Notes: generated by a model not told the origin, from the sequence alone. DNA of 64,000 nt from Vampirovibrionaceae bacterium NZW_1234 (GCA_041697335.1 JBGUGD010000002.1:64001-128000), one strand, 5' to 3'. Shown: positions 11,425-29,072, counted from the first letter of the stretch. Numbers and translations are program-made.

Positions 11425-12063
11425 ATGATGCAGTTTTCCCGGGAAGAACTCGATAGACGGTTGCTGGAGACAGCATCCATTGAAACGCGCATCCAGCTTG
11501 TGGATTCCCCTTTGTATCAAGCATGTTTTGAGCATACTCTTGAACAATCCCAGCTGTTTTTACAGGGCAATCTGTCGCACCGAGACACGGGGCTGATTAT
11601 CATTGATGTTGATGAAACTACATTGGATAATCGCGGCTTTTATGCCCATCCCGAGGTTCAGTACTATGAGGTGGGTCATCCAGAGCAGTATGTCCGGGTG
11701 TGGCATGGGTGGTGTCAGGAGGCCAATGCGCCGGTCATTCCACCCACACAGCGTTGGTTGGACTGGGTTCAACAACAAGGGTTCCAATATGGCTTTGTGA
11801 CGGGGCGTCGTCATAAGCATCACGAATGGACCTGGCAGAATCTGGAGCGGGCCGGAGCCATTACTGCACAATGTGTCGGGTTGTTCTGCCGACCGGATGA
11901 CTGGACCGCTTCCACGGCAGAGTTTAAAACCCACCAATATGGTTTGATAGAGCAGATGGTGGAGAAAAAGATCGTTGCCATTTTGGGGGATCAGCCCGGC
12001 GATATGGGCTGGGACTGCGAGGGCAAGTTTTTGCTACCCTCGTTTGTCCTGCATACGGTATAG
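11425..12063 (+). CDS. HAD-superfamily acid phosphatase (class B/C-like)
   Basis: DVDETTLDN motif I, FVTGR motif II, conserved K, GDQPGD motif IV. TAAGGA RBS before ATG 11425. Confidence 0.85.
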   Translation: MMQFSREELDRRLLETASIETRIQLVDSPLYQACFEHTLEQSQLFLQGNLSHRDTGLIIIDVDETTLDNRGFYAHPEVQYYEVGHPEQYVRVWHGWCQEANAPVIPPTQRWLDWVQQQGFQYGFVTGRRHKHHEWTWQNLERAGAITAQCVGLFCRPDDWTASTAEFKTHQYGLIEQMVEKKIVAILGDQPGDMGWDCEGKFLLPSFVLHTV

Positions 12064-12075
12064 TTCTCAGCGAAT

Positions 12076-12528
12076 CTAGCCGGCGTTAAATTCCTGGAAG
12101 GCGCGATCGGTGGATTCCAGGTAACGCTTGGTATCGTCCAGGACCCGGTTTCGGTCGCCCAGGTATTTTTGCAATTCGGCTTTGGTTCCGACCATAAGAT
12201 ACTGATCCGATGTGCTTTTTGTGCTGGGTGTTTCGGCATGAAAATCCAAGTAGCGCTGATTGTTTCGATCCTGCTTGGGGTCGGGGTGGGACCAATGGCC
12301 GATCCGATAGGTTACTTTGCCCAGAGCGGGCATTTCTTGAGAGGCATTGAAGGCGACTTCGACGGGACGAAACGGACCGAACTCCGGAACCTCACGGTTA
12401 ACACGCGAGGCCAAAATATCGGCCGAATTTAAAATTTCGTTATCCACGGATTTCCCGAAGCGTTGCTTGCCGGTTGCCATGGCACGAGTATCAATTGGGG
12501 TTCGCATTTGAGGGATACTATATACCAT
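12076..12528 (-). CDS. Hypothetical protein with QRFG leader
   Basis: GGAGG RBS upstream; 150-aa open frame. Confidence 0.7.
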   Translation of the reverse strand: MVYSIPQMRTPIDTRAMATGKQRFGKSVDNEILNSADILASRVNREVPEFGPFRPVEVAFNASQEMPALGKVTYRIGHWSHPDPKQDRNNQRYLDFHAETPSTKSTSDQYLMVGTKAELQKYLGDRNRVLDDTKRYLESTDRAFQEFNAG

Positions 12529-12647
12529 TGTTGATTGACCTCCTGATCCACCTGTTCTAGGGGTTGTGTGCGTTTACCATGTTCTTTTGGGCTTGTTGGG
12601 TTTGACTTTAAGACGGTTGAGTGTCTTTGGGCGCCCTACCCCAGCGT

Positions 12648-14393
12648 TTAACTGGGGTAACGGGCATGGGCTTTCTTTGTATGATGATATAAGTCCTGTA
12701 AATGTAAAATGTTGTCAATGCTCAACACAGAACTTAACCCTTCGGGTAACTTGGGTGGTTGGCTGGCGACACCAAGTTCCATGTTGCGGGCGTGGATATA
12801 GCACTCGTTGAGATAGCGGTTGTAGAGCAGACGTTGCTCATCACTGAGAGCGTGAATGGCTGACTCAAAGGGTTTGAATTTTGGTTCTACAACCTTTTTG
12901 CCTGCGGGTGTGAGTTCACGATACAGGTCTTTTTTAATTCCGGCATCGTATGGCAGGTGCTCGGCATCTGCAATTCGGAGGGCGCGTTTTCCGATGATCT
13001 GGATCTCGCCGGTCACGCCATCGCCGTGATCCAAGTAGCCGCAGATGGAGGTAAACGGTGATTTGTCCGGTGCGGCTTCATAATTCCCCATTTTTACTTT
13101 CAGCCCTTTTTCGGCACAGGCGTCTTGAATGCGTTGCATGTGCTCCGGCGTGAAGTAGGGTTTTCCATTGGGCCCTCGCAGGTTATTCAACTGCTTGAGC
13201 TTGACCTTGCCATCGCGTATTCCTTTGACCAGCGCATCAACGACTTTGTTCATGCCTTCAGGCGTTGTATCTCCCACGACTAACCGGGAGCCCAGGGCGT
13301 CCCAGAGGTTATGGCGGGCTTGATCGACGGTGGTGATTTCTTTAATTTTCAGCGGTTGACCGTCTGCCCCGATTTTCACAGGATCCGTGGCCCACCCTGC
13401 CTCGACGGTACGTTGCAAGCGGTTGGCTCCTGAAACCGGCTTCTTGGCGCGAGCCTGGATCTCACCGAGGCCTGCAAAGACTTCCTGCATGACGGCCTTT
13501 TCAGCTGCCATTTTCTTTTCGAGTTGTGGATAAAGTTGCTCCATCAAGGCAATGACTTTCGGATCGCCCCCTTCTGCTACGGCAGGCGTGGTTTTCACTG
13601 CTGTTTCATTGGCCACGCGTGTGGTTTGTCCCTTGGTGGCTGTTTTGTTGGCAGCGGCTGTCTTGGTGACTTTTGCCGCTTGGAACTTGTGGACAACACC
13701 GTGAATGGTGCCACCCATGACGCCACCGCCAATGGCGCCTGCAACGATGGATGACACCCCAGCACTGTGGGCTTCACTCAGGTTCAGGCTGCCCGTCTTT
13801 TTGTAATTGTCATAGGCGCTATGGGCAAATCCGGAAATGTAGCCAATGGCAGCCCCATCTGCAGCCCCATGGGCAGCACCGCCCAGAATGGCTCGTTTCA
13901 GGGTTTGCTGGCCAATGGCTTTAACCGTAATCTCTTTGGTGGCTTCCTTGGTCAGCTGGATACCGAGGCGACTGGCTGCGGTCCCGGCTAATTTGCCAAA
14001 GCCGCCAGGAATGGCGCCAATGGCTGTATCGATCATAACCGTACCCCAGTCAATTTTGCCTGTAGTCAGCTTTTGATCTACGGCACTGGATACTCCTGAG
14101 GCTAAGGCCGCCGCTGCCATGGCCCCTGGCGGTCCACCTGCCAGTCCGCCGACAATGCCGGCACCGACGATGAAACCGATTTTGACAGCCTCTTTACCCC
14201 ATTTTAAATACCAGGGTGTGTTATCTTCCTGATGTTGCTGTTGCTGCTGTTGAACTCGTTGCGGTGCTACAGGTGGGCCAAATTGGTTGAGGCCCATGCC
14301 CGCATCGGGTTGACCGACTGCAAAAAGTCCTGGATTGTGTGGTGCCGCAAAAGGTGCATGCCCCGGAATGACGCGATTCCCTGCTCCTAACAA
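12648..14393 (-). CDS. Effector-like protein: glycine-zipper hydrophobic region plus RelA/SpoT-like synthetase domain
   Basis: Gly/Ala-rich hydrophobic helices (GFIVGAGIVGGLAGG, KIDWGTVMIDTAIGAIPGG). C-terminal RAKKPVS, DALGSR, GEIQI, AEHLPY. TTG start follows a GGGGGG RBS. Confidence 0.7.
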   Translation of the reverse strand: MLGAGNRVIPGHAPFAAPHNPGLFAVGQPDAGMGLNQFGPPVAPQRVQQQQQQHQEDNTPWYLKWGKEAVKIGFIVGAGIVGGLAGGPPGAMAAAALASGVSSAVDQKLTTGKIDWGTVMIDTAIGAIPGGFGKLAGTAASRLGIQLTKEATKEITVKAIGQQTLKRAILGGAAHGAADGAAIGYISGFAHSAYDNYKKTGSLNLSEAHSAGVSSIVAGAIGGGVMGGTIHGVVHKFQAAKVTKTAAANKTATKGQTTRVANETAVKTTPAVAEGGDPKVIALMEQLYPQLEKKMAAEKAVMQEVFAGLGEIQARAKKPVSGANRLQRTVEAGWATDPVKIGADGQPLKIKEITTVDQARHNLWDALGSRLVVGDTTPEGMNKVVDALVKGIRDGKVKLKQLNNLRGPNGKPYFTPEHMQRIQDACAEKGLKVKMGNYEAAPDKSPFTSICGYLDHGDGVTGEIQIIGKRALRIADAEHLPYDAGIKKDLYRELTPAGKKVVEPKFKPFESAIHALSDEQRLLYNRYLNECYIHARNMELGVASQPPKLPEGLSSVLSIDNILHLQDLYHHTKKAHARYPS

Positions 14394-14731
14394 GAATCTT
14401 CCCCCCTAACTGATCATCTTCCCTTGAAGTAACTACATATTCCTCTGTGGATATAAAAACGTCATTGGTATTATTTGTTGCTATGGTTGTAGAAAGGTGA
14501 ATTAAGTTGTTTTTATCCGGTTTTGAAAACTTCCTGGCTTTTTCAATCCAGGCGGGTATTCATGGCTTCGTCTGTCCCGAATCGGCGGGATTTCTAAGAA
14601 GGGCTCCAAAGTCTGATTGACGCTTGTGATTTAGGTGATACACTGAACAACAATTTAACGTCGTATTTGATACGAATATTGAGGATTCACGTCATTCTGT
14701 TCTCGGTTTTTCCGTCGTTGGAGATGGTTGT

Positions 14732-15055
14732 ATGAGAGTACCCCCGACATCTTCGACCGCTCGACCGGTCGCTCTGTCCTACCCTGCTGGTCATCTTGGT
14801 CATGTTCGGCTTGGGTACTCCGGGATGGCTGATCTGGCGGCGCTTCCTGTTAGGGCTCAAAAGGCCAATGCAAGTGGGCCGCAGATGGGGCAAGCCTTTT
14901 TTGCCCCTGTCGTTTCCACACTCGTTCAGATTGCGGCTGCGGTCATTGCCGCTGTCATCGGTGCCGTGGCCTGGATAACACTAACTGCAACCAAGTCCGC
15001 AACGAAAGCCGATGATACGCAACAGGAAGATAAAGCCAAAGGGACGTTTGATTAG
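14732..15055 (+). CDS. Small hypothetical membrane protein
   Basis: Low-complexity N-terminus and one strong TM segment (LVQIAAAVIAAVIGAVAWITL). Confidence 0.6.
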   Translation: MRVPPTSSTARPVALSYPAGHLGHVRLGYSGMADLAALPVRAQKANASGPQMGQAFFAPVVSTLVQIAAAVIAAVIGAVAWITLTATKSATKADDTQQEDKAKGTFD

Positions 15056-15059
15056 GTTC

Positions 15060-16355
15060 CTAACCGATTTTGATTAACCGCGCCATGTAAAACCCATCGT
15101 GATTGAGGCTGGGTAACACATGACGCGCTTCATCCAGGGTAAATTCGGGATGTGATTTTAGAAACGTTTCTATCACGTCCTGATTTTCCGCTTTGTCGAT
15201 GCTGCATGTACTATAGATAATCGCCCCGTTTGGCTTGATATGCTGGGCTGCACTGTTCAACAAGGCGAGTTGGGTTTGGGTGTAGGTGGTAAAGGCCGCA
15301 TCTTTCAGGTTCAATAGTATTTCCGGGTGTTTCCCAATGGTGCCGCTACCCGAACAGGGTGCATCCACCACAATCCGATCAAATTGCTTGCCGAAATCAT
15401 GGAGTGACGTGGCGTCTTGGACAGCAGGGGTGACGATGGAGACACCCAATCGTTCACAATTTTCAGTCAGCAGTCGCAGACGTCGTTCAGAGATGTCAAT
15501 GGCGGTTATATGGCCTTGGTTCTGCATCAGCGCCGCCAGATGCGTAGTCTTGGTGCCGGGAGCCGCTCCGATTTCCAGAATCTCGTGACCCGGCTGAGGG
15601 GCAGTAAAGTGGGCCACCATGGCGGAAGATTCATCCTGAACCACGAAATGACCTTCTTGGTAGCCGGGCAATAAGCTTGGATCGCCAACCCCTTGCGTCA
15701 ACTGAAGTACCTCTGGAATGTTGGGGGATGGCGTTGCGTCTATGCCTTCACGATGGAGGGTTTCCAGGTAGTGGTGCGCAGACGTTTTGAGTGTATTGAC
15801 CCGGATAGAAAGGTTGGGGATACTTTGATACGCAGTGATAATCGCCTGCACCGTGGCCTCGTCGAATTGAGCGTGCAGTCGCTCCAACCACCAGGGCGGC
15901 ACCAGGGTATGAAGCTCCTGAGGCCAAGGTTTGCCCTGGCGCAGATAGGTTTGGAGCATGGCGTTGATAAAGCCTCTGCTTTTGGTGGCGAGGCCCAGGG
16001 AAGAGGCCAGATCCAGGGTGGTTGATGTGGCTGCAAAATCAGGCACGCTATCCATACGTGCCAGTTGGAACAGCCCCATTCTTAACAGCAGGCGGACCTT
16101 GGGGTCCAGCTTTTTCAAAGGCAATTTGCTTTGCTGGTCAATCAGGTGACTCAGGGAAAACCAATGACGGACAATCCCATACGTCAGGTAGGTGCAAAAT
16201 CGTTTCTCTTCTGCGGACGGGCCGTAACGTTTGAACGCCGCGCTTAGTTGCTCTTCGATATGCAGGCGATGCGTCCGCCCCAATTCCAAGGGCATCAGGA
16301 TATCGACGGCAATGCGTCGCGCAAGATTGGGTTTCGTAGACGTCTGCTGAGCCAT
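15060..16355 (-). CDS. rsmB: 16S rRNA m5C967 methyltransferase RsmB/Sun
   Basis: NusB-like N-domain, VQDESS, AAPGTKTT, DAPCSGSG, YSTCS, DGFY. Confidence 0.95.
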   Translation of the reverse strand: MAQQTSTKPNLARRIAVDILMPLELGRTHRLHIEEQLSAAFKRYGPSAEEKRFCTYLTYGIVRHWFSLSHLIDQQSKLPLKKLDPKVRLLLRMGLFQLARMDSVPDFAATSTTLDLASSLGLATKSRGFINAMLQTYLRQGKPWPQELHTLVPPWWLERLHAQFDEATVQAIITAYQSIPNLSIRVNTLKTSAHHYLETLHREGIDATPSPNIPEVLQLTQGVGDPSLLPGYQEGHFVVQDESSAMVAHFTAPQPGHEILEIGAAPGTKTTHLAALMQNQGHITAIDISERRLRLLTENCERLGVSIVTPAVQDATSLHDFGKQFDRIVVDAPCSGSGTIGKHPEILLNLKDAAFTTYTQTQLALLNSAAQHIKPNGAIIYSTCSIDKAENQDVIETFLKSHPEFTLDEARHVLPSLNHDGFYMARLIKIG

Positions 16356-16465
16356 AGATCTTATTGCTGGGCGAGGGATGTGCTATGGATCATACCAGCT
16401 TTGCGTTCAGGGACCAAGGTTCACGTGCAACCTTTCGGCCGTGAGACGTTGGCAGAGGTTGTGAC

Positions 16466-16500
16466 AAAAAAAAGAAGCTACCGATAAATTTTTCGGTAGC
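16466..16500 (-). terminator. Intrinsic terminator (minus strand)
   Basis: Minus strand reads GCTACCGA-aaaattta-TCGGTAGC followed by TTCTTTTTTTT. Confidence 0.75.
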
Positions 16501-16720
16501 GTGACTTGGGGAGGAGGTTGGGGAATTCGGGTCACCGATTTGGTTTCGGCTTCCCGTTACATAACTGTCTTCGATCGAATTGTGGAAACCTTTAGGAAAA
16601 AGTCTGTGATTTGGCTTTATACTGTTACAAATCTTTATATAGTGACATGAAAGCCGCTCTGGATTGTTTTTATGCAAATAGAACATCTCTCTTCTCCTTA
16701 TCTTCTCTCTTTTCTTTTGA

Positions 16721-16748
16721 AACCCCTATTTTGGGGTTTTTTCTTTTT
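16721..16748 (+). terminator. Intrinsic terminator-like hairpin
   Basis: AAACCCC-tattt-TGGGGTTT followed by a T-run. Confidence 0.6.
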
Positions 16749-17013
16749 GTCCAGGTGCTGTCGAAAACGGATACTGCTTGAATCCAGTCCCCCGAATAGA
16801 GGAATTTGAAAAGGAGCTCAAATCGAGCTTGATTCTTCGAAATAGCTTATCCCGATGGGGTTTCGAAGACTTTATTGAAAAAATGTTATTTTAAGATATT
16901 AGGCTAGAGTGACGATAATCGAGGTACTTTCTCTTTGCTGAACTCTACTCTTCTTAAGGAAGAGTTGGCTTTGGCTGAACATTGTGCGGATAACGTTGGA
17001 GTTATGTGGGCTT

Positions 17014-18327
17014 ATGCCAAAAGGTATTCCTTTTTACGAGTATTTTCAGGATCCGGACATAAAAAAGCCCATCGAAGAAATTTATTCCGACCTAGATCGG
17101 TATACGATGGAGACTTACGAGGACGATGATCTGACCCGGTTTACCATTGACCTCTTCGTTTTGATTCCGCCTGTCTTGTATGAAGGTGTGTTTTTGAAGG
17201 GGATGCTCTTTACCCAGTCTGCCGATATGGTGATTCGACGTTATCCTGACGTTCAAAAGCTCTTTTTCGTTATGGCATATTCCATGTGGAGTTCCTACCC
17301 CTGGTCTGCCTTGGCCGACTTTTATTTTACCTGCTATAACAACCCGCAGCGTGATGAGTGGTTCCGATCCACGAATAAAGGACGGGGTGGTAAGGTTCAT
17401 TTACCATTGGAAGACTCTGATTATACAAATGAATATAACATGGCACCTTTGTTGGGCCTGGAAAAAGATATTGATGTCATTGCTGTTGCTCGCTTACATA
17501 TTGGCAAAAATGTACCTATGATTGCTGAGATGATTAAGCTCTACCGTGAAAAGTACAATAAGCCGATTCGTTTAACTCTGGTTGTCGGAAAAGATTTTGA
17601 TATTAACTGGTCTGGTTTAGATGAATCCGAGAAGGAAGAGCTCCGCAAAGTGGAGGCTATCTTGGAACATCCCAATGAATACATTGATTTTGTACCTCGT
17701 ACGTTTCAAATCAGCAGTGATCCCAACATGAAATCTATGCCGCATTATTATTCTCGGGCCAAGGTATGTGTCCTTGGGTCACTATTGGAGGGAAAAAACC
17801 GAAGTATCAAAGAGGCTATGAGCTGCAATGTCCCTGTGATGACGTTTCGTCAGTTTAATCAATATCAGCGCAATGGTGAACCTGCATTTCCTGAGGGCGG
17901 AGGCCTCTATATTCCGGAGTTTGATGTTGAGTCGATGGCTGACACCTTGCATGAGCTTTTAGAAAACTATGGCGATTTTAAACCCCGTCAGCAGTATTTA
18001 CGTCACGCGGGTCGGAAGAAGTTCTTGAATATCTGTATGGATTCAATCCCCTATTATGAAAATAACTTACCAGGTTATGAAAAAGGTGAAAATCATTTAA
18101 ATGAATTTCTTGATCTCGCAATACAAGCGAACTACCAGATCAGTCTCATCGATTTTTTATACGGACGAAACCCTATGATTACTCATCGTCGTGGCCTGGA
18201 AGATGTTGATGGCATGATGGACTTCTTCTTTGTTCGGTTTGGCATCAGAAAGCCTCGTGAAGGACCACCTCCCGGACATCAAGAGGCTACAGGATCGGGG
18301 CAAGCTGCCAATAGCCAGCAAATGTAG
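17014..18327 (+). CDS. Glycosyltransferase (GT4/GT-B fold), paralogue 1
   Basis: VARLHIGKN and the E-X7-E motif SLLEGKNRSIKEAMSCNVPV. Start MPKG matches the other paralogues. Confidence 0.85.
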   Translation: MPKGIPFYEYFQDPDIKKPIEEIYSDLDRYTMETYEDDDLTRFTIDLFVLIPPVLYEGVFLKGMLFTQSADMVIRRYPDVQKLFFVMAYSMWSSYPWSALADFYFTCYNNPQRDEWFRSTNKGRGGKVHLPLEDSDYTNEYNMAPLLGLEKDIDVIAVARLHIGKNVPMIAEMIKLYREKYNKPIRLTLVVGKDFDINWSGLDESEKEELRKVEAILEHPNEYIDFVPRTFQISSDPNMKSMPHYYSRAKVCVLGSLLEGKNRSIKEAMSCNVPVMTFRQFNQYQRNGEPAFPEGGGLYIPEFDVESMADTLHELLENYGDFKPRQQYLRHAGRKKFLNICMDSIPYYENNLPGYEKGENHLNEFLDLAIQANYQISLIDFLYGRNPMITHRRGLEDVDGMMDFFFVRFGIRKPREGPPPGHQEATGSGQAANSQQM

Positions 18328-18343
18328 TGATAGGAGATTTTTA

Positions 18344-19621
18344 ATGCCAAGAGGTGTTTTTCCCGGTCAATACATCAATAATCCTAATATTGATAAGCCC
18401 ATTGAAGAAATTTATGCTGACATTGATGGTTACTCATGGGAAATATATGAGGATGAACCACATTGGCATACATCCAGTATGCTTTTCTTTGTCGTTCTGC
18501 CCCCGTTGTTGTATGAGGGACGTTTTATTAAAGGATTGGCATTAAGTAATTGTACGGATATGCTGGTTGAACGTTATCCTTGGTTTACAGATTTATTTTT
18601 CCCAATAGCTTATTCTATGTTCTCTTCGTATCCATGGTCTGGTTTGGCTTCCGTATATTTTACGGGTTATGATAATCCTCATCGATTAGAGTATTACAAG
18701 CGAACACACCCTGGTCGTGCGCACAAGACATTTGTCCCTTTAGAAGATTCTGATTTTATTAATGAATATGTATTCGCACCATTTCCTGGTATAGAAAAAG
18801 ATATAGACGTGCTGTGTGTTTCTAGACCATCTTTAGAAAAAAATCTTCATGTCGTGGCCAAAGCCATCAAAATCTATCACGAAAAGTATGGTCAAAAAAT
18901 ACGAATGACATTTTTAGGTGGGCGTAACTTTGACTTAAACCTTAATGGTATGGTGCCTCCGGAAAGAGATGTTTATAAACTGATTGAAGAGGCTGTTACG
19001 CATCCACGTGATTACATTAATTTTATTCCTGTTGAGATTCAAGATAAGGGTGCTTTAGCCAGTTTATATAGCAGGGCAAAAGTTTGTGTGCTGGGCTCAC
19101 TTATCGAAGGAAAAAACAGAAGCCTCAAAGAAGCAATGCTCTGTAATACTGCTGTCGTCTGTTTTAAACAGTTTAATCAATATACCCGAGCAGATGAAGA
19201 GGTCTTTCCATCAGGAGCCGGTATGTATGCTCCCGAGTTTGATCCTGAAATAATGGCAGAAACAATTCATGACGTTATAAATAATCTAGGTGATTTCAAA
19301 CCTCGACAAAGCTATCTGCCTACTTCAGGCAGACGTCGGTTTTTTAATAAGTGTGTTGATGCCATGCCCTATTATCATGAAGGTATTTTGGAATATGAGC
19401 CTGGTAAAAATCATTTAAATATTTGGCTGGATTTAGCGATGCATTCTATGTATCAAGTTGGAATCGAAGATTATATTTATGAGAAGCATACAAGAATTTC
19501 ATTTGCACGTGGACCAGAGCAGATTGAAGAGTTAATTAATTACTATGGTGTTCGCTTTGGAATCCGTCATCCATCTGTTTTAGACAAAAATAAGTCAGGA
19601 TCACAAGAGGTGTCTGTATAA
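18344..19621 (+). CDS. Glycosyltransferase (GT4/GT-B fold), paralogue 2
   Basis: AGGAG RBS; VSRPSLEKN; SLIEGKNRSLKEAMLCNTAV. Confidence 0.85.
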   Translation: MPRGVFPGQYINNPNIDKPIEEIYADIDGYSWEIYEDEPHWHTSSMLFFVVLPPLLYEGRFIKGLALSNCTDMLVERYPWFTDLFFPIAYSMFSSYPWSGLASVYFTGYDNPHRLEYYKRTHPGRAHKTFVPLEDSDFINEYVFAPFPGIEKDIDVLCVSRPSLEKNLHVVAKAIKIYHEKYGQKIRMTFLGGRNFDLNLNGMVPPERDVYKLIEEAVTHPRDYINFIPVEIQDKGALASLYSRAKVCVLGSLIEGKNRSLKEAMLCNTAVVCFKQFNQYTRADEEVFPSGAGMYAPEFDPEIMAETIHDVINNLGDFKPRQSYLPTSGRRRFFNKCVDAMPYYHEGILEYEPGKNHLNIWLDLAMHSMYQVGIEDYIYEKHTRISFARGPEQIEELINYYGVRFGIRHPSVLDKNKSGSQEVSV

Positions 19622-20874
19622 TGCCTGCCGGAAGATTTCCTTATGAGTATTTCAAAGATCCTCATATTCAAAAGCCAATTGAACAAATTTACCAGGATAT
19701 CAATGGGTATACTTGGGAAACTACTGACGACGATTCCGAGTTATGGCATGGCGAATCTTTCATCCAGGTTGTTTTGCCACCACTGCAAATGGATGGACTT
19801 TGTGTAAAAGGGATCTTTTATTCGAATGCTGTTGATGTCATTCTTCGGCGATACCCCTGGCTCTCTGATCTATTTCATACCATAGGTTCTTCGATGTTTA
19901 GCTCTTATAGTTGGTCTCGAAAAGCTGACGTATTATTTTCTGTTTATAATAATCCACATCGTGATAATTGGTTTCGCAACCAGGAGCCTGCTCGCCATCA
20001 TCAACTGTTATTCCCGTTACTTGATTCCGACTTTTTAAATGAATTAACCTTCTGTCCCTTGAATGTAGCTGAGAAGGATATAGATGTTTTATGCATTAGT
20101 CGATTGAATCCCGACAAAAATCTTGAGGTGGTTGCAAAAGCTATCCAGATTTTAAATAAGAAATACAATGCTTCTGTCCGCATGACGCTGATTACAGGTC
20201 AGAAAATGGATTTAAATCTACAATATATACGACCTAATGAGCGTGAGGAGTTTTATAAAATTGAGTCTGCCGTAGAACATTTTAGAGATTATATTGATGT
20301 GGTATTAGACCGTATATTTGATCCTACAGAACTTGCTCGATACTATTCCCGAGCGAAAGTTTGTGTTCTTGGCTCATTGCTGGAAGGTCGTAACCGATGC
20401 ATCCGAGAAGCTATATCTTGTAACACTCCTGTTGTGTGTTTCAAGCAGTTGAATCAGTATGCTCGTGGAGATCAACCGGAGCTTCCAGATGGAGCGGCAA
20501 TGTATGCTCCAGAATTTGATGCCGAGATTTTAGCAGACACCTTATATGAAGCGTTGAATCATCGAGATAGTTTTCATCCTAGGAAAGCCTTTTTGCGTCA
20601 CTTTGGCCGTAAGACTTTCTTAAACCAATGTTTAAATCTCATACCTCACTATCGAGAAGTCTTACCAGATTTTTCAGAATATGATAATTATTCAAACGAT
20701 TGGTTAAACATGGCTATCTACCAACAATATGAAAAGAGTTTCCATGATTTACTTTATGATAAACAAGTAGAACTGACCTATGCAAAAGGCATGAATAATA
20801 TAGAAGCTTTTGCAGAAAATTTTGGTTATAAGTTTGGTATTCTTAAAAAAGAAGTAAAACCTATATTACGTTAG
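19621..20874 (+). CDS. Glycosyltransferase (GT4/GT-B fold), paralogue 3
   Basis: TAATG stop/start coupling with paralogue 2; ISRLNPDKN; SLLEGRNRCIREAISCNTPV. Confidence 0.85.
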   Translation: MPAGRFPYEYFKDPHIQKPIEQIYQDINGYTWETTDDDSELWHGESFIQVVLPPLQMDGLCVKGIFYSNAVDVILRRYPWLSDLFHTIGSSMFSSYSWSRKADVLFSVYNNPHRDNWFRNQEPARHHQLLFPLLDSDFLNELTFCPLNVAEKDIDVLCISRLNPDKNLEVVAKAIQILNKKYNASVRMTLITGQKMDLNLQYIRPNEREEFYKIESAVEHFRDYIDVVLDRIFDPTELARYYSRAKVCVLGSLLEGRNRCIREAISCNTPVVCFKQLNQYARGDQPELPDGAAMYAPEFDAEILADTLYEALNHRDSFHPRKAFLRHFGRKTFLNQCLNLIPHYREVLPDFSEYDNYSNDWLNMAIYQQYEKSFHDLLYDKQVELTYAKGMNNIEAFAENFGYKFGILKKEVKPILR

Positions 20875-20903
20875 ATAGGTCTTACTTCGGTTCGTTTTTT
20901 TAA

Positions 20904-23579
20904 TTAACATCGTGGGGGTGGCGGAGTGTAACATGGTGGTGGTGGAGGGCACACAGGGACGCACTGTGTGGGTATCCAAGTTTGTGTGACCACATTGTTT
21001 GTGCCCACAATCGTGGATTGAATATAGGTTGTAATAAAGGAAACATTTTGAACGGTATGTGTGACCGTGCTTTGAATGTTGGATTGATATGCAATCTGAG
21101 TATTGTATGTAGAGTTGTATTGTGATGGGACGTATGTTGTATGGTTGTTTTGCGTCCAATAACCTGATTGGAGTGCAACTTGAGTATTATAGGTGACATT
21201 GTATTGCGTGGGGATAGTCGACGTGTAATTACTTTGTGTCCAATATCCAGATTGTACTGGAACTTGCGTATTATAGGTAATATTACTTTGTGTCGGTATG
21301 TAGACCGTGTGATTGGTCTGCTGCCAATACCCCGATGCATAGGCAATTTGAGTACTAACCGGGGTATAGACATATCCTGAATGATAGGCAGTATGATAAA
21401 CAGATACGTAATAGCCTGATGAATAATGATAAGTTGTTGGATACCATGTTGGTAAGACTGCTGAATAGTAAGCACTTATATAGTAACCTGATTCAACGTA
21501 ATACGACGTGGAATACGTTTCCGTTATTTGGACGTGACTGGTATACGAGACGTAGTGACTACCTGTAATGGTAGTGGTGTAGGGTGAAGGAATATGCGTT
21601 GATCCATAGACCGTGACATAGGATTCTGGCACCCAAGAGTTGTAATACCATGTGCTGAGCGTTGGTACATCGTATGAGGTCGTGAAGGGTGAAGGAATAT
21701 GCGTTGATCCATAGACCGTGACATAGGTTTCCGGTACCCAAGAGTTGTAATACCATGTGCTGAGCGTTGGCATGTCGACCCAAGTGGGGTGAGGGGACGG
21801 TATATGGGTTGACTCAGTAACCCAGACATAGGATTCTGGCACCCAAGAGTTGTAATACCATGTGCTTAGCGTTGGCATGTCAACCCATGACTCGTATGAG
21901 GATGGGACATATGTCGAATCATAAACCGTGGTATAGTACCCCGTGGCACTGTATTGATCGCTTCCGGGTACCCAGGAGTTGTAATACCAAGTGCTCAGTG
22001 TCGGCATGTCAACCCATGTCGGGTAAGACGACGGGACATAGGTGGAGTCATAATGTGACACATAATATCCCGGAATTTGAGAGTTATAGCTCCAAGTGCT
22101 GAGCGTTGGCAGATCAATCCATGATTCAACAGGCGATGGGACATAGGTGGAGTCATAATGTGACACATAGTATCCCGGAATTTGAGAATGGTAATACCAG
22201 GTGCTTAAGGTGGGGACATCATAGGTTGTCGTGACTGTCGATGGGACATAAGTGGACCCATGATGACTGACATAATATCCCGGAATTTGAGAATTGTAAT
22301 ACCTGGTACTTAAGGTGGGGACATCATAGGTTGTCGTGTAAGAGCCATAGACCCAATGACCTGAGTTGTAAGTACTTGTGTAATGGCTCGTATAAGTACC
22401 TGAATAAACATAACTGCTTCTATGCCATTGTTCTATATACCAATGACTTGTGTAATGGCTTGCATAGGTTGAATGGATTGTATAATTTTGAGGAACCCAG
22501 GAGTTGTGATAGCCTGCACTGGCGTACACTGTAGCATAACTGGAAATGTAGTTGCTTGTGTAATGCAGAATAGTGGGTACCCAATTGTTGACCACATAGT
22601 TGCTGGTCGTTACGCCGTTAATTTGACTTGTATAGGTGCTTTGGACGTTGTAGATGCTTGGTGTCCAAGCGCTGGTGGTGTAGTTGCTTGCCACAACAGA
22701 GTTGATGGCGCTAGTGTAAGTGCTTTGGACGTTATAGATACTTGGGCTCCAGTCATTGGTAACATAATTACTGGGGGTTACTGTTGCCACCGCAGTGGTA
22801 TAGGTGCTGTTTTGATACAGCGTTACAGGGACCCATTCGTTGGTTGTGTAATTGCTTTGCGTATAGATTGCTGACTGCACAGGTACTTGGCTGTTATAAG
22901 TGTAGGATGACTGTGTGACCACCTGTGACCAGTAGCCATCGGTGTAGCCGGTATTGCAATTGTTTTGATAATTGCCGTAATTCCAGTTCCAATAGCCATT
23001 ATTATTGTTGTTGCTTATGCCATTATTGCCGCCAATGACAATGTTATTTACGAAATTGCCGGCATTGCCAAAATTATTGCCAATGTTAATGCCACTGATG
23101 TTTGGAACCCAGGTATTGTTGCTTAAGTCGGTGTTGGTTGTTTGAAAGGAATTCTTCTTATCGAATAATTCGCTTAACAAGAACATGGCCAACATGTTGT
23201 TGTTATTGTTGACCGGACGCTGTTGTTGTCTGGGTGCGAAAAAGTTATTGGTACGGCGGGTTGTATTTAATCCAAAACGATTCGTGGTGTTCTGAGTTTG
23301 GGTATTGGTATTAAAGAAACTGAAAGGCGAGCGTAATTGGTAGTTCCCTGCTGCGGCATAGGCTGCAGCATTTGTATTGTTAGTGGCAGGTCTTCGGTTG
23401 AAGAAATTGCTGGTTCTGTTGGTGGTATTATTCATGCCCCCGGTAAAATACCGGAAGTCATTTGGAACTGCCTCTGGCTGGGCATATGGAGTCGGACTAC
23501 CAAATGGATTTGAGCCGAAATCGACTCCACCCATTTGGGGGTCCCATGGTCTATTAATGCCAAAACGTGAGGTTGACAT
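20904..23579 (-). CDS. Ser/Thr/Tyr/Trp/Asn-rich tandem-repeat protein (putative fibrous glycoprotein)
   Basis: ~890-aa ORF with 28-, 35- and 28-aa repeat blocks, N-terminal SRFG and C-terminal CVPVCPPPPPCYTPPPPRC. Confidence 0.85.
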   Translation of the reverse strand: MSTSRFGINRPWDPQMGGVDFGSNPFGSPTPYAQPEAVPNDFRYFTGGMNNTTNRTSNFFNRRPATNNTNAAAYAAAGNYQLRSPFSFFNTNTQTQNTTNRFGLNTTRRTNNFFAPRQQQRPVNNNNNMLAMFLLSELFDKKNSFQTTNTDLSNNTWVPNISGINIGNNFGNAGNFVNNIVIGGNNGISNNNNNGYWNWNYGNYQNNCNTGYTDGYWSQVVTQSSYTYNSQVPVQSAIYTQSNYTTNEWVPVTLYQNSTYTTAVATVTPSNYVTNDWSPSIYNVQSTYTSAINSVVASNYTTSAWTPSIYNVQSTYTSQINGVTTSNYVVNNWVPTILHYTSNYISSYATVYASAGYHNSWVPQNYTIHSTYASHYTSHWYIEQWHRSSYVYSGTYTSHYTSTYNSGHWVYGSYTTTYDVPTLSTRYYNSQIPGYYVSHHGSTYVPSTVTTTYDVPTLSTWYYHSQIPGYYVSHYDSTYVPSPVESWIDLPTLSTWSYNSQIPGYYVSHYDSTYVPSSYPTWVDMPTLSTWYYNSWVPGSDQYSATGYYTTVYDSTYVPSSYESWVDMPTLSTWYYNSWVPESYVWVTESTHIPSPHPTWVDMPTLSTWYYNSWVPETYVTVYGSTHIPSPFTTSYDVPTLSTWYYNSWVPESYVTVYGSTHIPSPYTTTITGSHYVSYTSHVQITETYSTSYYVESGYYISAYYSAVLPTWYPTTYHYSSGYYVSVYHTAYHSGYVYTPVSTQIAYASGYWQQTNHTVYIPTQSNITYNTQVPVQSGYWTQSNYTSTIPTQYNVTYNTQVALQSGYWTQNNHTTYVPSQYNSTYNTQIAYQSNIQSTVTHTVQNVSFITTYIQSTIVGTNNVVTQTWIPTQCVPVCPPPPPCYTPPPPRC
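21580..22340 (-). repeat. Seven ~105-nt coding repeats (DxPTLSTWYYNSxxP...)
   Basis: PTLST occurs 7 times at a 35-aa period; one unit has an 8-aa insertion. Boundaries are approximate. Confidence 0.9.
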
Positions 23580-23769
23580 TGACACACACACTCCATGTAC
23601 TACAAAAGAATAAAAACATGGATGTTGCAGTTATTTACTATTTATATCTAAAAAATATAATATATTTACAAAATTTTACAATTTGAGACCGACTTTGTCA
23701 GGAAGTCTTTCCAGAGCTTTCTCTTTTGAAATGAAATAATTCTTGATCAAACTATCTGAAAAAGGATTC

Positions 23770-23973
23770 TTACAGGGGCTTTAGGGGGACGAGTTGGGTG
23801 AAGGGGGTTTTATGGAAGGTGTTGCCGTAGGAGAAATAAAGCACGGAGCCTAGGGTGAAGAACACGCAGAGGATAGTGATGGCTTCCAATGCCAATACGC
23901 CCAACTGGCTGAGCTGCTCTGTGGGTGAGAGCACTTTGGGTAGGGTATTGGATGGGCTTGGTGTGGGCCACAT
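23770..23973 (-). CDS. Possible small membrane protein
   Basis: GGAGG upstream and one hydrophobic segment (LALEAITILCVFFTLGSVLYF). Confidence 0.4.
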   Translation of the reverse strand: MWPTPSPSNTLPKVLSPTEQLSQLGVLALEAITILCVFFTLGSVLYFSYGNTFHKTPFTQLVPLKPL

Positions 23974-24180
23974 GGGAGGGTCTGCCTCCAGGTTGGTGTG
24001 TGTCCCACTTTAGCGGATGTTGTATGACGGGACATCGGACACTTGAGGAGGGAAAACAAAGCCAGAGTTCGAGAATTAGCCTGTTGTGGGGGGAAGACAA
24101 TAAGGAACTAAGCTACACTATTGAGTGAACAGCATGTTGCTTAAGTGGGCAAAGCACTGGGTAGGGAGGGGGATGTACGG

Positions 24181-24636
24181 ATGATTAGCTATAGTAAGTG
24201 CATTGATGTGAATGTGTCTTGTGAGGATTGTTTTCGCTTGTGGTCGGATGTGGAAGATTATCCTCGCTTTATCCCGTTTTTTGAGAGTGTCCAGAAGGTT
24301 GCAGCTCGGCCAAATCGGTATCATTGCCGCTGGCGGTTAGAATCGGGACGTCGCACGACATGTGATATTGAGGTGGATGAAATGGTGTCTTTCGATCGGG
24401 TTGTGTTTCATACCGTGGGGTGTGATTTCCCGGATCATTGCTTCAAGGTCTCTTTTCGGCCGTTAGGGCAGGAGCGGACTCAGGTTGAATTGGTCATGAC
24501 GTCCAATGAGCTGATGGATGAACTGTTCGATAACCCGGACTGGGTTTTGGATGATGTATTGCTGCGATTTCATAATCTGGCGGAGCGGCGTATTCCATAC
24601 CCGCATCTTTCAGAAGAACAACATTCGCGCAGCTAA
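24181..24636 (+). CDS. SRPBCC/polyketide cyclase-dehydrase family protein
   Basis: IDVNVS...FRLWSDVEDYPRFIPFFESV...VSFRPLG..RTQVEL pattern. Confidence 0.8.
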   Translation: MISYSKCIDVNVSCEDCFRLWSDVEDYPRFIPFFESVQKVAARPNRYHCRWRLESGRRTTCDIEVDEMVSFDRVVFHTVGCDFPDHCFKVSFRPLGQERTQVELVMTSNELMDELFDNPDWVLDDVLLRFHNLAERRIPYPHLSEEQHSRS

Positions 24637-24649
24637 CCTGGGACCAAGT

Positions 24650-24685
24650 AACACGGCCAACCCCGACTGGGAGGTTGGCCGTGTT
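24650..24685. terminator. Hairpin between convergent genes
   Basis: 13-bp stem AACACGGCCAACC / GGTTGGCCGTGTT. Confidence 0.6.
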
Positions 24686-24708
24686 CAGGATCAAATTATT
24701 GGGATAAT

Positions 24709-26964
24709 TTAGAGTTTAAAGTTACTGACCAGGTGCTCCAGATCGGCTGCCAGCTTGGCCAGCTCCTGAGAGGTTTGCTGAACTTCGACGGCACATTGTG
24801 TGGTTAAACTCGAGGTCGACTGAAGCTGATCGATTTGGTTTGCCATACCCGAGGTGTTCGAGGCCGATTTGGAGGCGCTGCTTGCGACCTCGTTGGTACC
24901 CTGGCTCAGCTGGTTGAGATTCTCCGTGATCTGCTTGATGCCCACAATGGATTCTTTGATTTTGAGAGCGACTTCACTCATCTTCTGAGCGCTATCCTGG
25001 ACATTGGTGGTCAGGTTGTTTGCCGTGTGGGCGGTCTTTGTGACACTGCGGCTGATTTCGGTCATGGTTGCCGTTTGCTCTTCAACGGCACTGGCAATGG
25101 TGCCGTTGATGTGGCTGATTTCACCGATGACGGCCGTAATGCCGTGAATGGCTTCAATGGCAGAACTGGTATTCATCTGGACTGCCTGAATTTGGTTGCG
25201 AATGTCTTCGGTGGCTTCTGCGGATTGCTTGGCCAGTTCCTTGACTTCGTTGGCCACGACAGCGAAGCCTTTGCCCGCTTCACCGGCACTGGCGGCTTCA
25301 ATGGTGGCGTTCAGCGCCAGCAGATTCGTTTGGGAGGCGATGCTCTTAATGACGTCCACGACATTCTCAATCTGCTTCGCCGCTTGGCTTAAGGAGTCCA
25401 CGGTTTGCAGCGAGATTTGAGCTTTTTGCTGTGCATCGATGGACACCTGTGAAGCTTGGCTCGCATTTCGGGCGACTTCATTCAGTGAGGCGTTCATCTC
25501 TTCAATGGCCGCCGCCACGGTATTTACCGAGGCGTTCATATCCTCGGAAGCAGCGGCAACAAAGTTCATGTTCTCGGAAAGCTGGTCCACGACCTTTTCA
25601 ACCACGGTATTGTTCTGGTAGATTTTGTCGCTGGTGTGGAACACTTCTTTCAGGTTGGATGAGGACTCCTCAATGGCCGCTGCCACGGTTTTCATATCAA
25701 AATCGATTTCACCCGTGAGGCTTGAAGCAACGGCGGAGGCTTGGTTCAGACTGTCGGCACTGATTTTCATCTGCTCCGACGTGAGCGAGAGTTCTTCTGA
25801 AGCGGAGGCAATGGTGTTGACATCATCCCGAATGCCGCCGATGAGCTTTGCAAAATCCTTGGCCATCCGGTTGATAGAGACACCGAGCATATTGAGCTCG
25901 TCTTTGGTGGCCAGTTCCATGCGGGCGGTCAGATCACCGCTGGCCAGTTGCTTTGAGGTCTCGGCCAGGGATTGAACGGCATCCTTCACGGAGAGATAGA
26001 AGCCCATTAATAAATAGCTGATGATCAACAGCATCATGACGGTGACCACTGCCGCAATAATGAGCGGTACGGGTTTTTTGTTGACCCGAACCTCAATGAG
26101 GTTTTCCAATGCCTTGGATTGTTCGATGAAAACCGTGTTGGTCTTTGCCAGGGCATCCCCGGTCATGGTGTTAATCTGGTTGCGTTCTGCCGCGGTGACC
26201 TGTTGATTGGTGATGACGGTTTCGAACACTTTGGCATACGCGTCCATGGCGTTGAAGAAGGGATCGGTGTGCTTGCTGAGGGTTGCTTTTAATGCATCCG
26301 GCGAGGCGGTCTCACGGTAACTGACATCAAGGTTGCTTTTGACGGTTCCCGCTTTATCGGAAAGGGCATTCTTGAGGCCGGCCAGCTTGAGTGTCTGCTC
26401 CAGTGTCAGCGGTGTTCCCAGAGGCAGGGAATTGGTATATTCCTGAAGATCGAGAATGTTTTTCTCAATTTGGGCGAGTCGCAATACCACGCTGTCCATT
26501 AAATAATAGGTATCCAGATCGGGATCCAGGATCAGGTTGGATTTGTCACCGACATAGGTTAAGAGGCCAATAGCTGCATCGGCCGTAGATAGGCGCTGCT
26601 CCATGGATTCTGGCTTTTTGGCCAGCGCTGTTTTGGTATTCGGCCACTGTTCCTGCAGGGACAAAGTGCTATTGTACTTGTTGCTCAGCGCCTCAAGGGA
26701 TTCCATGTTTTTTGAGACGGCATCATCGTTTTGGCTGAGCAGGTTATACAGCACGTTGTTGAGGGCCATGTTGTATTCGATCCCGATTTCTTCTTTCTGG
26801 GAGAATTCAATGTCCTTGAGCACGGTGGTGACAAATTGGTACATGGGGAACGTTAAGACCACGATGAACATGATGGAAATGAGGGTGAACTTCTTGGGGT
26901 AGGTTAGTTTGTTCATCAGGTTGACAGAAAGATTGAACCAGGAATGATTGGATTGGGTTTGCAT
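24709..26964 (-). CDS. Methyl-accepting chemotaxis protein
   Basis: Two TM segments, periplasmic [18 protein letters not shown] domain, and [34 protein letters not shown] signalling tip. Confidence 0.97.
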
Positions 26965-27034
26965 GTGATGGACTCCCGTGCTGAAAGGACGTGAAATACT
27001 GAAATGGATTACCGTGCAATAAGCTTAGGATGGC

Positions 27035-28783
27035 TTAGAACAAGGCCGTGTCGATGCCAAAGTGCAACCGAGCACCTTGGCGAAAGGGCAACTGGCGAAG
27101 CAGTGGAAAGCCCACATCGAGGCGGCCGGAGATACGGTTGGTGATTTGCGAGCGGATCCCGAATCCGGTGGACAGGATGTGATCATTGCCATCAATGCCT
27201 GCCGGTGTATGGGTTGCATCTCCGTAAGCATAATCCACAAAGGTCAAGACAGAGGTGGTGTCTCTCATATCATGATCCGAGAACGGCAAGCGCCAGCCTT
27301 TGGGGATGAACTTGGCAGGGATTTGATATTGTCCGGTCAAAACGGCATAGGTATCGGCAAAGATGAAGACTTCCCGATAGCCTCGGCCGTAGAAGGTACC
27401 GCCGATACCGCCGACGTCAAAGTTGGATAACCCGTCCGGGCTGTATTGCCATTGGGTGTTCAAGGTAAAGCTGGCATCCAGAGGAAGCTGGCGGACCGCC
27501 GTGGCATACCCGGTATAGCGGAAGAACTGGCTACCGCCACGATACCAGGATAGTCTGGGATCGGTAGACAAGGAGCCGCTGAAAATCGGGACGGCTTGTG
27601 CCAGCTCGTGACGCATGGACAGGGTGGTTTTTTCCCATTTCTGGTCATAGTTAATGCCGCCCCGAAAGGTTCTGACGGCTTCACGTTCGATGGGGTCATC
27701 GTTGGAGCGGGTATTGGATTGCTTGAAGTCGAAGTTGATATCGGCACTTAAACGTCGGTCGGGTTTGTCGAGAACCACATAGCGTAAGCCGGGGGAAATC
27801 CGGTAGGCCATCCCGTCTGAGCCGAAACCGGTATAGGGAACATTATAAGGCTCAATATCTGCAAATTGGGCATCGACATAGGCTCTGAGCTGAGGCTTGA
27901 TGGGGATCTCGTAGCGGCTAAACACGCCCGTCGAGCGAAAGCCTCTGACGGCTGAGAGCATCAGTGAATCGCCGTGGCCGGTGATGTTATTGTGAACGGC
28001 CGTTAGTGCGCCGAAATAGCGCCCGAAGATGATCTGGTCCAAGTTGTTGCCGGAAGCCACAATGTGTAAGGGCTGCTTGTGCTCACTGGATGTGATTTTG
28101 ATCTTTGCCTTGTGGGTGAAGGGAATAACTTCCAGAGTCGAGGAAAAGGACAGATCCGGGTTGGCCTGGATGAGTCGCAATTGCTTTTCCACGAAGGGCA
28201 TGTCGATGGCGTCTCCTGTTTTTACGCCTCTTAAAAGGTGTGTCAGGAGTTTTTCCTGCCATTTGTCTTCTGCTTGAACCTCAACGGAATCCAACGCTAA
28301 CGGGGTGACTGCAATGTGAAGGACGTTTCCTTTCAGGGTCACAACCGCGTCGGACAAGTAGCCGGATTGTTGGGACTTTGTCAGGTAGCTTTGGGTGAGT
28401 TCTTTCACACTTTCGGTGGTCAAACTCTTCTGGCCTTCTACAACTTCCTTATCGCGTTTCATAATCGAGTTGTATTCAACTTCGACTTGGTCAACGCTAA
28501 TGCTGTTTGAGGTTTGTTCCGGGACATCAATGGAGGGTGGAGCCAATTTGGCTTCAAGTTCTTTATCGATGTAAATGGGATGAGGAATGCTTGAAAACGT
28601 GGGTGCATCCAACTTGATTTGAGGGCCATAGGTGCCGTAAATCAAGTTTGGTGTTGTCGACATGATGGGTAGTTCACTGGCAGTAAAGGGTTTGACCGCA
28701 TTTGGATCTGCATGAACCGTAGAACTCATCAACGTTATGGTTGCAGACAACCCCAATACACCCAACTTGGATTTCAAGCGCAT
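27035..28783 (-). CDS. ShlB/FhaC/HecB-family (TpsB) outer-membrane transporter
   Basis: Signal peptide, POTRA-like region, beta-barrel with GGTFYGRGY (VRGY-equivalent), C-terminal RLHFG...F. Confidence 0.8.
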   Translation of the reverse strand: MRLKSKLGVLGLSATITLMSSTVHADPNAVKPFTASELPIMSTTPNLIYGTYGPQIKLDAPTFSSIPHPIYIDKELEAKLAPPSIDVPEQTSNSISVDQVEVEYNSIMKRDKEVVEGQKSLTTESVKELTQSYLTKSQQSGYLSDAVVTLKGNVLHIAVTPLALDSVEVQAEDKWQEKLLTHLLRGVKTGDAIDMPFVEKQLRLIQANPDLSFSSTLEVIPFTHKAKIKITSSEHKQPLHIVASGNNLDQIIFGRYFGALTAVHNNITGHGDSLMLSAVRGFRSTGVFSRYEIPIKPQLRAYVDAQFADIEPYNVPYTGFGSDGMAYRISPGLRYVVLDKPDRRLSADINFDFKQSNTRSNDDPIEREAVRTFRGGINYDQKWEKTTLSMRHELAQAVPIFSGSLSTDPRLSWYRGGSQFFRYTGYATAVRQLPLDASFTLNTQWQYSPDGLSNFDVGGIGGTFYGRGYREVFIFADTYAVLTGQYQIPAKFIPKGWRLPFSDHDMRDTTSVLTFVDYAYGDATHTPAGIDGNDHILSTGFGIRSQITNRISGRLDVGFPLLRQLPFRQGARLHFGIDTALF

Positions 28784-29072
28784 ATTAGACCTTTCTTTTC
28801 TTTAGAGTCTCTCTCTCTTTACTTTCACGTCCAATGAGAGAGAAGTGTGTGTTTCCTTAAACCGAAAATGAAGTGGGGTATGAATACCGTTTCTATTTCT
28901 TAAATAAGCATATTATTTTTTTTTCGTTACGGGTGATATTGATCGATGGGTTGCTTTGTCGAGCGATGGGTTAGCCAAAGGGTTAGTCTTTGGGATTAAT
29001 CCTTTGGCTTTGGCGTCGGTCAGTTTGGTTGTGGGGGGTGGAAAGCGGGGTTTTTACGGGAGGGCGGCGCAC

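Follow-up and report, generated by a model that had tools for sequence, protein, structure and literature searches.

A chromosomal repeat protein predicted to fold as a giant antiparallel β-hairpin lies beside three GT4-like glycosyltransferases in a Vampirovibrionaceae bacterium

Positions 17,014 to 23,579 of a 64,000-nt stretch from Vampirovibrionaceae bacterium NZW_1234 (GCA_041697335.1, JBGUGD010000002.1:64001-128000; hereafter the window, to which all positions refer unless a contig is named) encode three glycosyltransferases (GT1, GT2 and GT3) and a convergent repeat protein rich in Ser, Thr, Tyr and Asn. The window is part of a 3.70-Mb genome that is 94.75% complete. The organism is an uncultured, non-photosynthetic relative of the cyanobacteria; it is placed in the Vampirovibrionia by the Obscuribacterales and Gastranaerophilales-like families within its class, and its order is probably Vampirovibrionales. 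The repeats of this protein pass through a series of periods and then through the same series in reverse, and the two halves prefer one antiparallel register. The repeat protein therefore probably folds as a single giant antiparallel β-hairpin. That GT1-3 glycosylate it is a more tentative proposal, which is weighed below.

Mirror-ordered repeats and a shared antiparallel register

A map of the local period along the repeat protein reads 28 from residue ~235, 24 (~361-410), 35, 43 at an insertion, 35, 24 again (~681-730, weaker) and 28 (to ~845). When the map was mirrored at residue ~544, 270 of 289 labelled pairs agreed, compared with a median of 24% at other centres, and none of 1000 shuffles of the segment order reached the observed match (segment bounds were set by eye from the map). 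A multi-period mirror score was computed for the 50 sufficiently repeat-bearing open reading frames (ORFs) among the 877 of at least 400 aa; the repeat protein scored 155 and the next best 64. That runner-up is an 834-aa repeat protein on another contig (C28:39784-42285, minus strand), with periods of 10, 20, 30 and 45 that are probably harmonics.

The residues of the two arms also match in one register, i+j=1085, which ranked first of 101 antiparallel registers for pair mutual information (MI) over all pairs (z 5.2). Taken singly, the 28-mer and 35-mer blocks also put it at the top of the 101 by MI (z 2.9 and 2.8, respectively), and in the 24-mer block it led the 101 for aromatic pairs (z 3.1). 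The commonest pairs at this register are S-T (22), Y-Y (16), T-S (14), Y-V (13) and T-T (10), and P-P and W-W occur as well; these pair types are typical of neighbouring β-strands. Rotation of the blocks of the C-terminal arm abolished the signal, with none of 200 nulls reaching z 5.1. The 28-mers differ in sequence between the outgoing and the returning arm but share their period and nearly their block length, so that one duplication does not explain what they have in common. Mirror-ordered periods and one top register in separate blocks thus make it likely that the repeat protein is one β-hairpin of ~325 pairs. A chain that runs out and back in antiparallel register is the mark of a needle of the gp37 type, and the sequence statistics here point to such a chain. 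An attachment fibre, proposed in the preliminary description from composition and gene order, gains support from both the repeat map and the single register.

Two further kinds of order were sought and rejected. A sequence palindrome between the arms gave a best reversed score of 59 against a shuffled maximum of 61, the symmetry being one of period and pairing and not of letters. Amphipathic alternation, as in a membrane β-barrel, was not seen: the lag-2 hydrophobic correlation is negative.

Several results weigh against a single hairpin. MI in the 24-mer block places register 1085 only 35th of 101, and in an all-centre scan of 252 long proteins of the genome a z of at least 4.45 was reached by nine, the repeat protein being the ninth. 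The weight of the register peak thus comes chiefly from its position, no more than two residues from the centre of the period map. A single-sequence AlphaFold2 (AF2) model had a mean predicted local distance difference test score (pLDDT) of 32, with short local strands, and was uninformative; no homologue is at hand on which paired indels of the arms, and so co-varying arm lengths, could show. All this would suit a string of local β-hairpins, solenoid units or a mucin-like disordered chain, whose mirror order would have arisen incidentally as repeats expanded within repeats. We consider such a chain rather unlikely, since the 28-mer blocks share period and nearly length despite their different sequences, the three period classes share one mirror centre, located at a unique 8-residue insertion, and separate blocks choose the same register. 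The single hairpin remains the preferred fold, and its parts are listed in Table 1.

Table 1 Features of the locus and predicted parts of the repeat protein
Feature	Position	Strand	Description	Evidence
GT1	17014..18327	+	437 aa, GT-B fold, GT4-like; intact R160/K165 and E259-x7-E267	PF13692/PF00534 above cut-off, alignment, AF2 pLDDT 91.6, fold searches
GT2	18344..19621	+	425 aa, 48% identity with GT1; GC at third codon positions (GC3) 0.28	
GT3	19621..20874	+	417 aa, 44% identity with GT1; TAATG overlap with GT2; GC3 0.31	
Repeat protein, S/T/Y/N	20904..23579	-	891 aa from ATG; predicted giant fold-back β-hairpin	
Tag	23034..23195	-	aa 129-182; short hydrophobic helix and N-I-G-N-N-F-G-x-x-G-N-x-V-N-N-I type tag	
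Outgoing arm	21960..22937	-	aa 215-540; 28-mers, then 24-mers, then 35-mers (PTLST at 421, 456, 491, 526)	
Predicted hairpin turn	21942..21968	-	aa 538-546 (G538-G546); 8-residue insertion in the middle 35-mer (fourth PTLST unit), mirror centre	
Returning arm	20970..21947	-	aa 545-870; 35-mers (PTLST at 569, 604, 639), then 24-mers, then 28-mers	
Cys/Pro-rich tail	20907..20963	-	aa 873-891; C-x-P-P runs resembling its own occur in three further proteins with the tag	

Composition, tag and relatives of the repeat protein

The protein is, as first described, saturated in Ser, Thr and Tyr (T 14.9, S 12.6, Y 12.5 and N 9.8%, with 2 Lys), and its S+T+Y+N content of 0.50, taken over the whole protein, exceeds that of every other called ORF of at least 150 aa in the genome. 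Residues 1-128 are rich in N, F and R. Differences between repeat copies fall 82/42/171 on the three codon positions; third positions dominate, and the repeat protein is therefore under selection. The N-x-S/T sequons, earlier taken as a signal, number 19; shuffling gives 22.2±3.9 over the whole protein and 19.5±3.5 when done locally. We accordingly think it very improbable that GT1-3 are N-glycosyltransferases acting on these sequons as HMW1C does on HMW1. Sequons are present, and the same strand has a gene for a ShlB-type outer-membrane transporter at a distance of 3.5 kb, but the sequons are at chance level, GT1-3 lack an HMW1C domain, and the repeat protein has neither a signal peptide nor a two-partner secretion (TPS) domain. 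A genome search with the HMW1C-type model PF18071 gave no match, and its control likewise matched nowhere.

The tag recurs in four other low-complexity proteins of the genome (C28:12076-13368, C29:134163-135416, C29:165897-168479 and C2:83590-86514); a set of 48 other genomes from the order yielded no instance of it. The four include a multi-core precursor of the microviridin type (NF033738), two Met-rich proteins and one with a GDPHF stretch that we take to resemble VWD domains, with no Pfam match. No signal peptide was found in any of the five; in the repeat protein the top 19-residue hydropathy within the first ~60 aa is -0.37. A further low-complexity gene, coding for Asn/Ile/Leu helical repeats, is probably split over two contigs with overlapping text at their ends (C18:3-1049 and C28:52853-55240, both minus strand).

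The repeat protein matched no Pfam or NCBIfam family. Residues 400-700 had no homologue among 5326 candidates, and none was found in the 48 genomes of the order, the ESM Atlas, viral contigs and 50,697 phage records. Among 1.84 billion there were two weak low-complexity matches, both rejected: P0121 (E 9e-5), a phage sheath protein, its repeats being unrelated, and P0122 (E 2e-4).

GT1, GT2 and GT3 are GT4-like enzymes

The three glycosyltransferases are paralogues of 44-48% identity, all with intact ORFs. Each matched PF00534 and PF13692 above the cut-offs, in the C-domain only (E 4e-11 to 2e-8), and the NCBIfam matches were generic GT4 models, all sub-threshold. The N-domain motifs previously pointed out as unusual are present in the alignment. 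R160, K165, E259 and E267 are invariant across GT1-3, and EGxNRxxxEA occurs in 34 of 46 aligned sequences; the E-x7-E motif and the R/K pair are presumably the donor- and phosphate-binding features of GT4-type GT-B enzymes. GT3 has the most departures from family-conserved residues.

The AF2 model of GT1, built on the 46-sequence alignment, has a GT-B fold. Foldseek returned SPS (6kih) first and GtfA (4pqg) third (TM-score 0.43/0.38, 11% identity). In a wider fold search TreT (17.7), SPS, a mannosyltransferase and HepE were matched at Z 17.4-17.7 (for the best, root-mean-square deviation 3.9 over 263 aligned residues), and the protein glycosyltransferases GtfA and SdgB at Z 13.7 (rank 29) and 12.3. 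As GtfA and SdgB rank below sugar and lipid glycosyltransferases, the fold gives no pointer to protein acceptors. By domain, fold model and motifs GT1-3 are GT-B/GT4-like glycosyltransferases.

Distribution and neighbours of the glycosyltransferase family

At a threshold of E<=1e-10, 131 of 3000 candidates belong to the family. It occurs in 45 of 400 other genomes of the phylum, as a single copy in every one (among them 22 of 25 genomes of the family that holds the Microcoleus records and 21 of 172 of a Gastranaerophilales-like family), in 28 of 400 other genomes of the class and in 4 of 107 Obscuribacterales genomes; 48 other genomes of the same order gave no match. No triplet was seen besides the one described here. 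Only one other genome (G449) has a tandem pair, and one (G517) has two unlinked copies; P0005 and P0010, whose contigs are of equal length, may be another pair. Viruses gave four weak generic matches only, and plasmids none. Four members (P0018, P0053, P0072 and P0088) are fused to radical SAM/SPASM, class I methyltransferase or TPR domains.

The genes around 116 loci were surveyed (80 of 157, mostly from Microcoleus and kin, plus 20, plus 12 of 13 after one weak 25% match was dropped, plus 4); 115 had a called glycosyltransferase ORF and 87 had 2.5 kb on both flanks, and the sample is non-independent. In 110 of the 115 no S/T-rich ORF lies within 2.5 kb, and among the 87 with full flanks such a neighbour was found only in L126 and L147, which carry the same 2.2-kaa protein. 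Most neighbours are housekeeping genes (rsmI-like, pfkB, gyrA-like, UDP-GlcNAc 2-epimerase), and in several Gastranaerophilales-like loci a UDP-GlcNAc 2-epimerase gene or GT2-type genes adjoin the glycosyltransferase. The family as a whole therefore does not travel with a repeat protein, and the synteny with low-complexity ORFs expected in the preliminary description fails for the family at large, whose members mostly occur without one. Peptide or S/T-rich neighbours do occur at the tandem-copy and deep-branching loci. In L039 an S/T/P-rich ORF overlaps the first gene of the only other tandem pair seen, in L136 an S/T-rich Ig-like protein is encoded 90 nt from the glycosyltransferase, and in L138 an (SP)n protein 1.5 kb away.

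In three Obscuribacterales loci the glycosyltransferase closes a cassette of an HprK-like gene, a 64-66-aa precursor-like ORF, PqqD and a borosin-type methyltransferase (L159:7151-10592 in G517, L158:7004-12219 in G495 and L161:808-4414 in G496). PqqD is PF05402, the methyltransferase matches OphMA (E 2e-53) and SonM (E 5e-51), the precursor ORF has three database matches, L161 holds two methyltransferase copies and L158 an NTP_transf_5 gene. L160 is a looser version, with a glycosyltransferase, an HprK-related kinase, an epimerase and a PqqD-like gene. By its gene content the cassette is a candidate split-borosin glycopeptide system, which suggests that some family members take peptide acceptors. 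One split-borosin cluster is described as encoding a putative glycosyltransferase (10.1101/2021.12.24.474128). The cassette itself was not found in the literature on borosin/PqqD glycosyltransferases, split borosins or HprK-related RiPPs (peptides made by the ribosome and modified after translation).

In the phylogeny the cassette glycosyltransferases form their own clade (support 98-99), which excludes GT1-3, so the hint of peptide acceptors is not directly transferable to GT1-3. FastTree weakly splits GT1-3, and an approximately unbiased (AU) test does not reject a single clade (p 0.74). GT1-3 are as distant from one another as from homologues of other lineages, which means that the expansion is old or that the copies arrived separately.

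A multi-core RiPP precursor glycosylated by GT1-3, offered earlier as an alternative to the fibre, would make use of these cassettes and of the tag shared with the microviridin-type precursor. The seven supposed cores are there as seven PTLST repeats, four of them exactly PTLSTWYYNSWVP. However, they are found on both arms of the hairpin as paired structural repeats, and the 35-mers are contiguous and conserved throughout, with no contrast of spacer and core; the repeats grade into 24- and 28-mers and pair across the turn. Beyond residue 200 the protein has just 3 Arg and neither Lys nor Gly-Gly. No RiPP recognition element, peptidase, transporter or microviridin-type leader was found in the block of four genes, and the genome gave no tblastn match to the Obscuribacterales proteins, whether PqqD, HprK-like, borosin-type or nucleotidyltransferase. 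Because the cores are paired structural repeats, a RiPP precursor is a most unlikely account of this gene.

A proposed glycosylated fibre

In the proposed fibre the chain would run out for ~325 residues, turn at G538-G546 and return, giving a ribbon whose root is near W218/W868 and whose base would hold the tag region and the Cys/Pro-rich tail. At 328 residues per arm and 0.33 nm per residue, the ribbon would be near 100 nm and up to ~108 nm long, or less if twisted. A two-stranded ribbon of such length would probably oligomerise to a multi-stranded needle, by analogy with T4 gp37. We infer that this fibre or needle would stand on the cell surface and be exported with no signal peptide, perhaps by way of the shared tag. 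Ser and Thr make up 209 of the 656 hairpin residues, a third, which suits O-glycosylation. GT1-3 are predicted to add sugars to Ser/Thr in the cytoplasm before export, O-linked rather than N-linked, and the paralogues may divide the labour into priming and extension.

Several observations argue for a link between the glycosyltransferases and the repeat protein: neither was found in the 48 other genomes of the order, only 29 nt separate the genome's most S/T/Y/N-rich ORF from the sole triplet seen, the block occupies the place where G003 and G004 have hisS, the only other tandem pair also abuts an S/T/P-rich gene, and L136 and L138 have S/T- or (SP)n-rich neighbours of their own. Other findings argue against it. 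The genes are convergent and so are not one operon; the GC3 of GT2 and GT3 differs from that of the repeat gene; and this mismatch, with a tag shared by proteins none of which is encoded beside a glycosyltransferase of this family, makes the repeat gene look native and not co-acquired with GT1-3. The same points would fit a real fibre beside an unrelated glycosyltransferase cluster: a locally expanded member of an orphan GT4 family, whose acceptor would be a glycan of the envelope, a lipid or a small molecule and which shares an AT-rich variable spot with a native low-complexity gene. The single-copy orphans in all 45 matching genomes of the phylum, the 110 loci with no S/T-rich neighbour, the epimerase and GT2-type neighbours in Gastranaerophilales-like loci and the sugar and lipid enzymes heading the fold matches favour such a neighbour; the confinement of both parts to this genome within the order, the 29-nt spacing and the second tandem locus speak against it. 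Given that the fibre is real, its glycosylation by GT1-3 falls just short of an even chance and is the weakest step. Hairpin and glycosylation taken jointly are hence a tentative reading, barely ahead of the fibre with unrelated glycosyltransferases, which we regard as a possible explanation in its own right.

Gene layout, base composition and surroundings

The preliminary description had three collinear, packed glycosyltransferase genes converging on a protein of ~890 aa, and all these ORFs are present. GT2 and GT3 overlap by TAATG as described, the GT1-GT2 gap is 16 nt where 17 had been given, and the ends of GT3 and the repeat gene, put at ~30 nt, are 29 nt apart. The block is flanked by rsmB, a START/cyclase gene and a gene for a methyl-accepting chemotaxis protein. 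As had been noticed, no flippase, polymerase, sugar-biosynthesis or nucleotide-sugar gene was found at the locus, the flanks (with a ShlB-type gene) included. The AT-richness once ascribed to the block as a whole holds for its overall GC (0.414 against 0.505±0.031 in genome windows; 16 of 3466 windows of the same size are as low, some of them the block itself) but is uneven across its genes. Against a genome mean GC3 of 0.56, GT2 and GT3 are very low (9 of 1806 ORFs are as low as GT3), and GT1 (0.45) and the repeat gene (0.47; 253 of 1806 ORFs as low) only moderately so.

In two other genomes (G003 and G004) hisS lies upstream of rsmB, where this genome has the block. Low-depth contigs from four runs (at most two samples) cover parts of the block, with no joint inside it, and bridge the GT1/GT2, GT2/GT3 and repeat-gene/cyclase junctions; no contig cleanly bridging the GT3/repeat-gene junction was among the listed pieces of these runs. 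The runs that contain the block are hot-spring and microbial-mat metagenomes, and no RNA run was among those listed. An Rfam scan of 11000-30000 gave one match only, judged to be chance. Counts of promoters and terminators in the block are at chance level, no terminator was called between the convergent genes, and no direct repeats were found flanking the block. The locus was not found, by title or start of abstract, among the papers listed on Vampirovibrio glycosyltransferases.

Several features of the surroundings deserve mention. Upstream of GT1, 658 nt (16356-17013) have no genes and hold terminator-like hairpins at 16477-16500 (minus strand) and 16719-16740 (plus strand); ~30 nt at 16494-16525 recur in another contig of run X9. 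The stretch matches nothing in Rfam and has no further copy in the genome. An orphan gene of 581 aa (12648-14393, minus strand), with a hydrophobic N-terminal part rich in Gly and Ala, sits in a stretch that is missing between rsmB and pgk in G003. Its C-terminal region seems to us to resemble RelA/SpoT-type nucleotidyltransferases, with no support from Pfam, NCBIfam or the PDB. Two genes are of the ShlB/TpsB type, one at 27035-28783 (minus strand), with no obvious TpsA partner, and one at 53801-55543 (plus strand). The latter is divergent from a 597-aa β-helix-like ORF (51610-53403, minus strand) whose start resembles a signal peptide and which matches no Pfam family.

Significance and comparison with known systems

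The surprising part of the locus is the fibre architecture, although the absence of giant hairpin fibres from print is not established, as the literature query was limited to gp37. If the fold is right, matched repeat counts would set the length of the hairpin directly, as in a programmable rod. Vampirovibrio chlorellavorus is described as having an attachment pad whose composition is unknown, together with electron-dense spikes going into the algal cell (PMC4451040), and a hairpin fibre in a relative would be a candidate part of such structures. If GT1-3 modify the fibre, a role as protein or peptide glycosyltransferases that need no GtfB partner would follow for a GT4 subfamily that is uncharacterised and widespread, and near-universal in Microcoleaceae. 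The full picture, a chromosomal hairpin needle or tube of ~100 nm that attaches to or pierces prey or a partner, is exported by its tag and is O-glycosylated by a GT4 subfamily whose Obscuribacterales members tailor a borosin-type RiPP, is a long shot.

GT1 resembles the GT-B retaining GT4-type enzymes TreT (6zj4), SPS (6kih), PimB' (3okc), BshA (6n1x) and PglA (8dqd) in its two Rossmann domains (Z 16.6-17.7). GT1-3 differ from these in their own N-domain motifs and an identity of only 10-20%; a C-terminal helical extension of GT1 (aa ~352-410) lies outside the matched region, and no characterised member was found. The locus also differs from lipopolysaccharide, exopolysaccharide and capsule clusters, having no flippase, polymerase or nucleotide-sugar genes.

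Serine-rich repeat protein (SRRP) adhesin loci are reported to encode several glycosyltransferases that prime and then extend sugars on a repeat protein (PMC6973325). Like the SRRP/GtfA-GtfB/SecY2A2 system described there, the present locus has several GT4-type cytoplasmic enzymes beside a long S/T-rich repeat protein. Unlike that system, its glycosyltransferases have no DUF1975 (no match at E<=1), and TIGR02918 scored at best 31 bits against a cut-off of 574.6, with neither genome match in the block. The genome has one SecA_DEAD match, on another contig (SecY2 and Asp were not searched). The repeat protein lacks a long signal peptide and LPxTG and ends in a Cys/Pro-rich tail, the genes are convergent, the host is Gram-negative, and Tyr/Trp-rich mirror repeats stand in place of Ser-X dipeptides. 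The locus may thus work like SRRP/GtfAB by analogy, but it is not a member, none of the defining features looked for having been found.

In the HMW1/HMW1C system a cytoplasmic glycosyltransferase of a Gram-negative cell is proposed to modify a neighbouring adhesin (PMC3012730, PMC10507012); the differences in enzyme domain, sequons and secretion signals are those given above. The MAT proteins of Bdellovibrio are described as fibre-like surface proteins of a predator with a phage-like design, namely signal-peptide-bearing trimeric β-helices, often with S74 domains (PMC10769870). The repeat protein has no signal peptide, trimeric β-helix or S74 domain, and predation by its host is suggested only by kinship.

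A further likeness is to T4 gp37, in which the chain is described as leaving a base domain and returning to it (D10, residues 811-881 and 1010-1026), forming an antiparallel β needle in which three chains give six strands (PMC9659904, PMC6957217). The repeat protein differs in being chromosomal and in having no sequence match to phages or PDB-like families, so the likeness is in design only. The excursion of gp37 is about 128 residues and that of the repeat protein about 650; if the predicted fold is right, a single chain of a cellular protein would form a hairpin about five times as long as the gp37 needle excursion.

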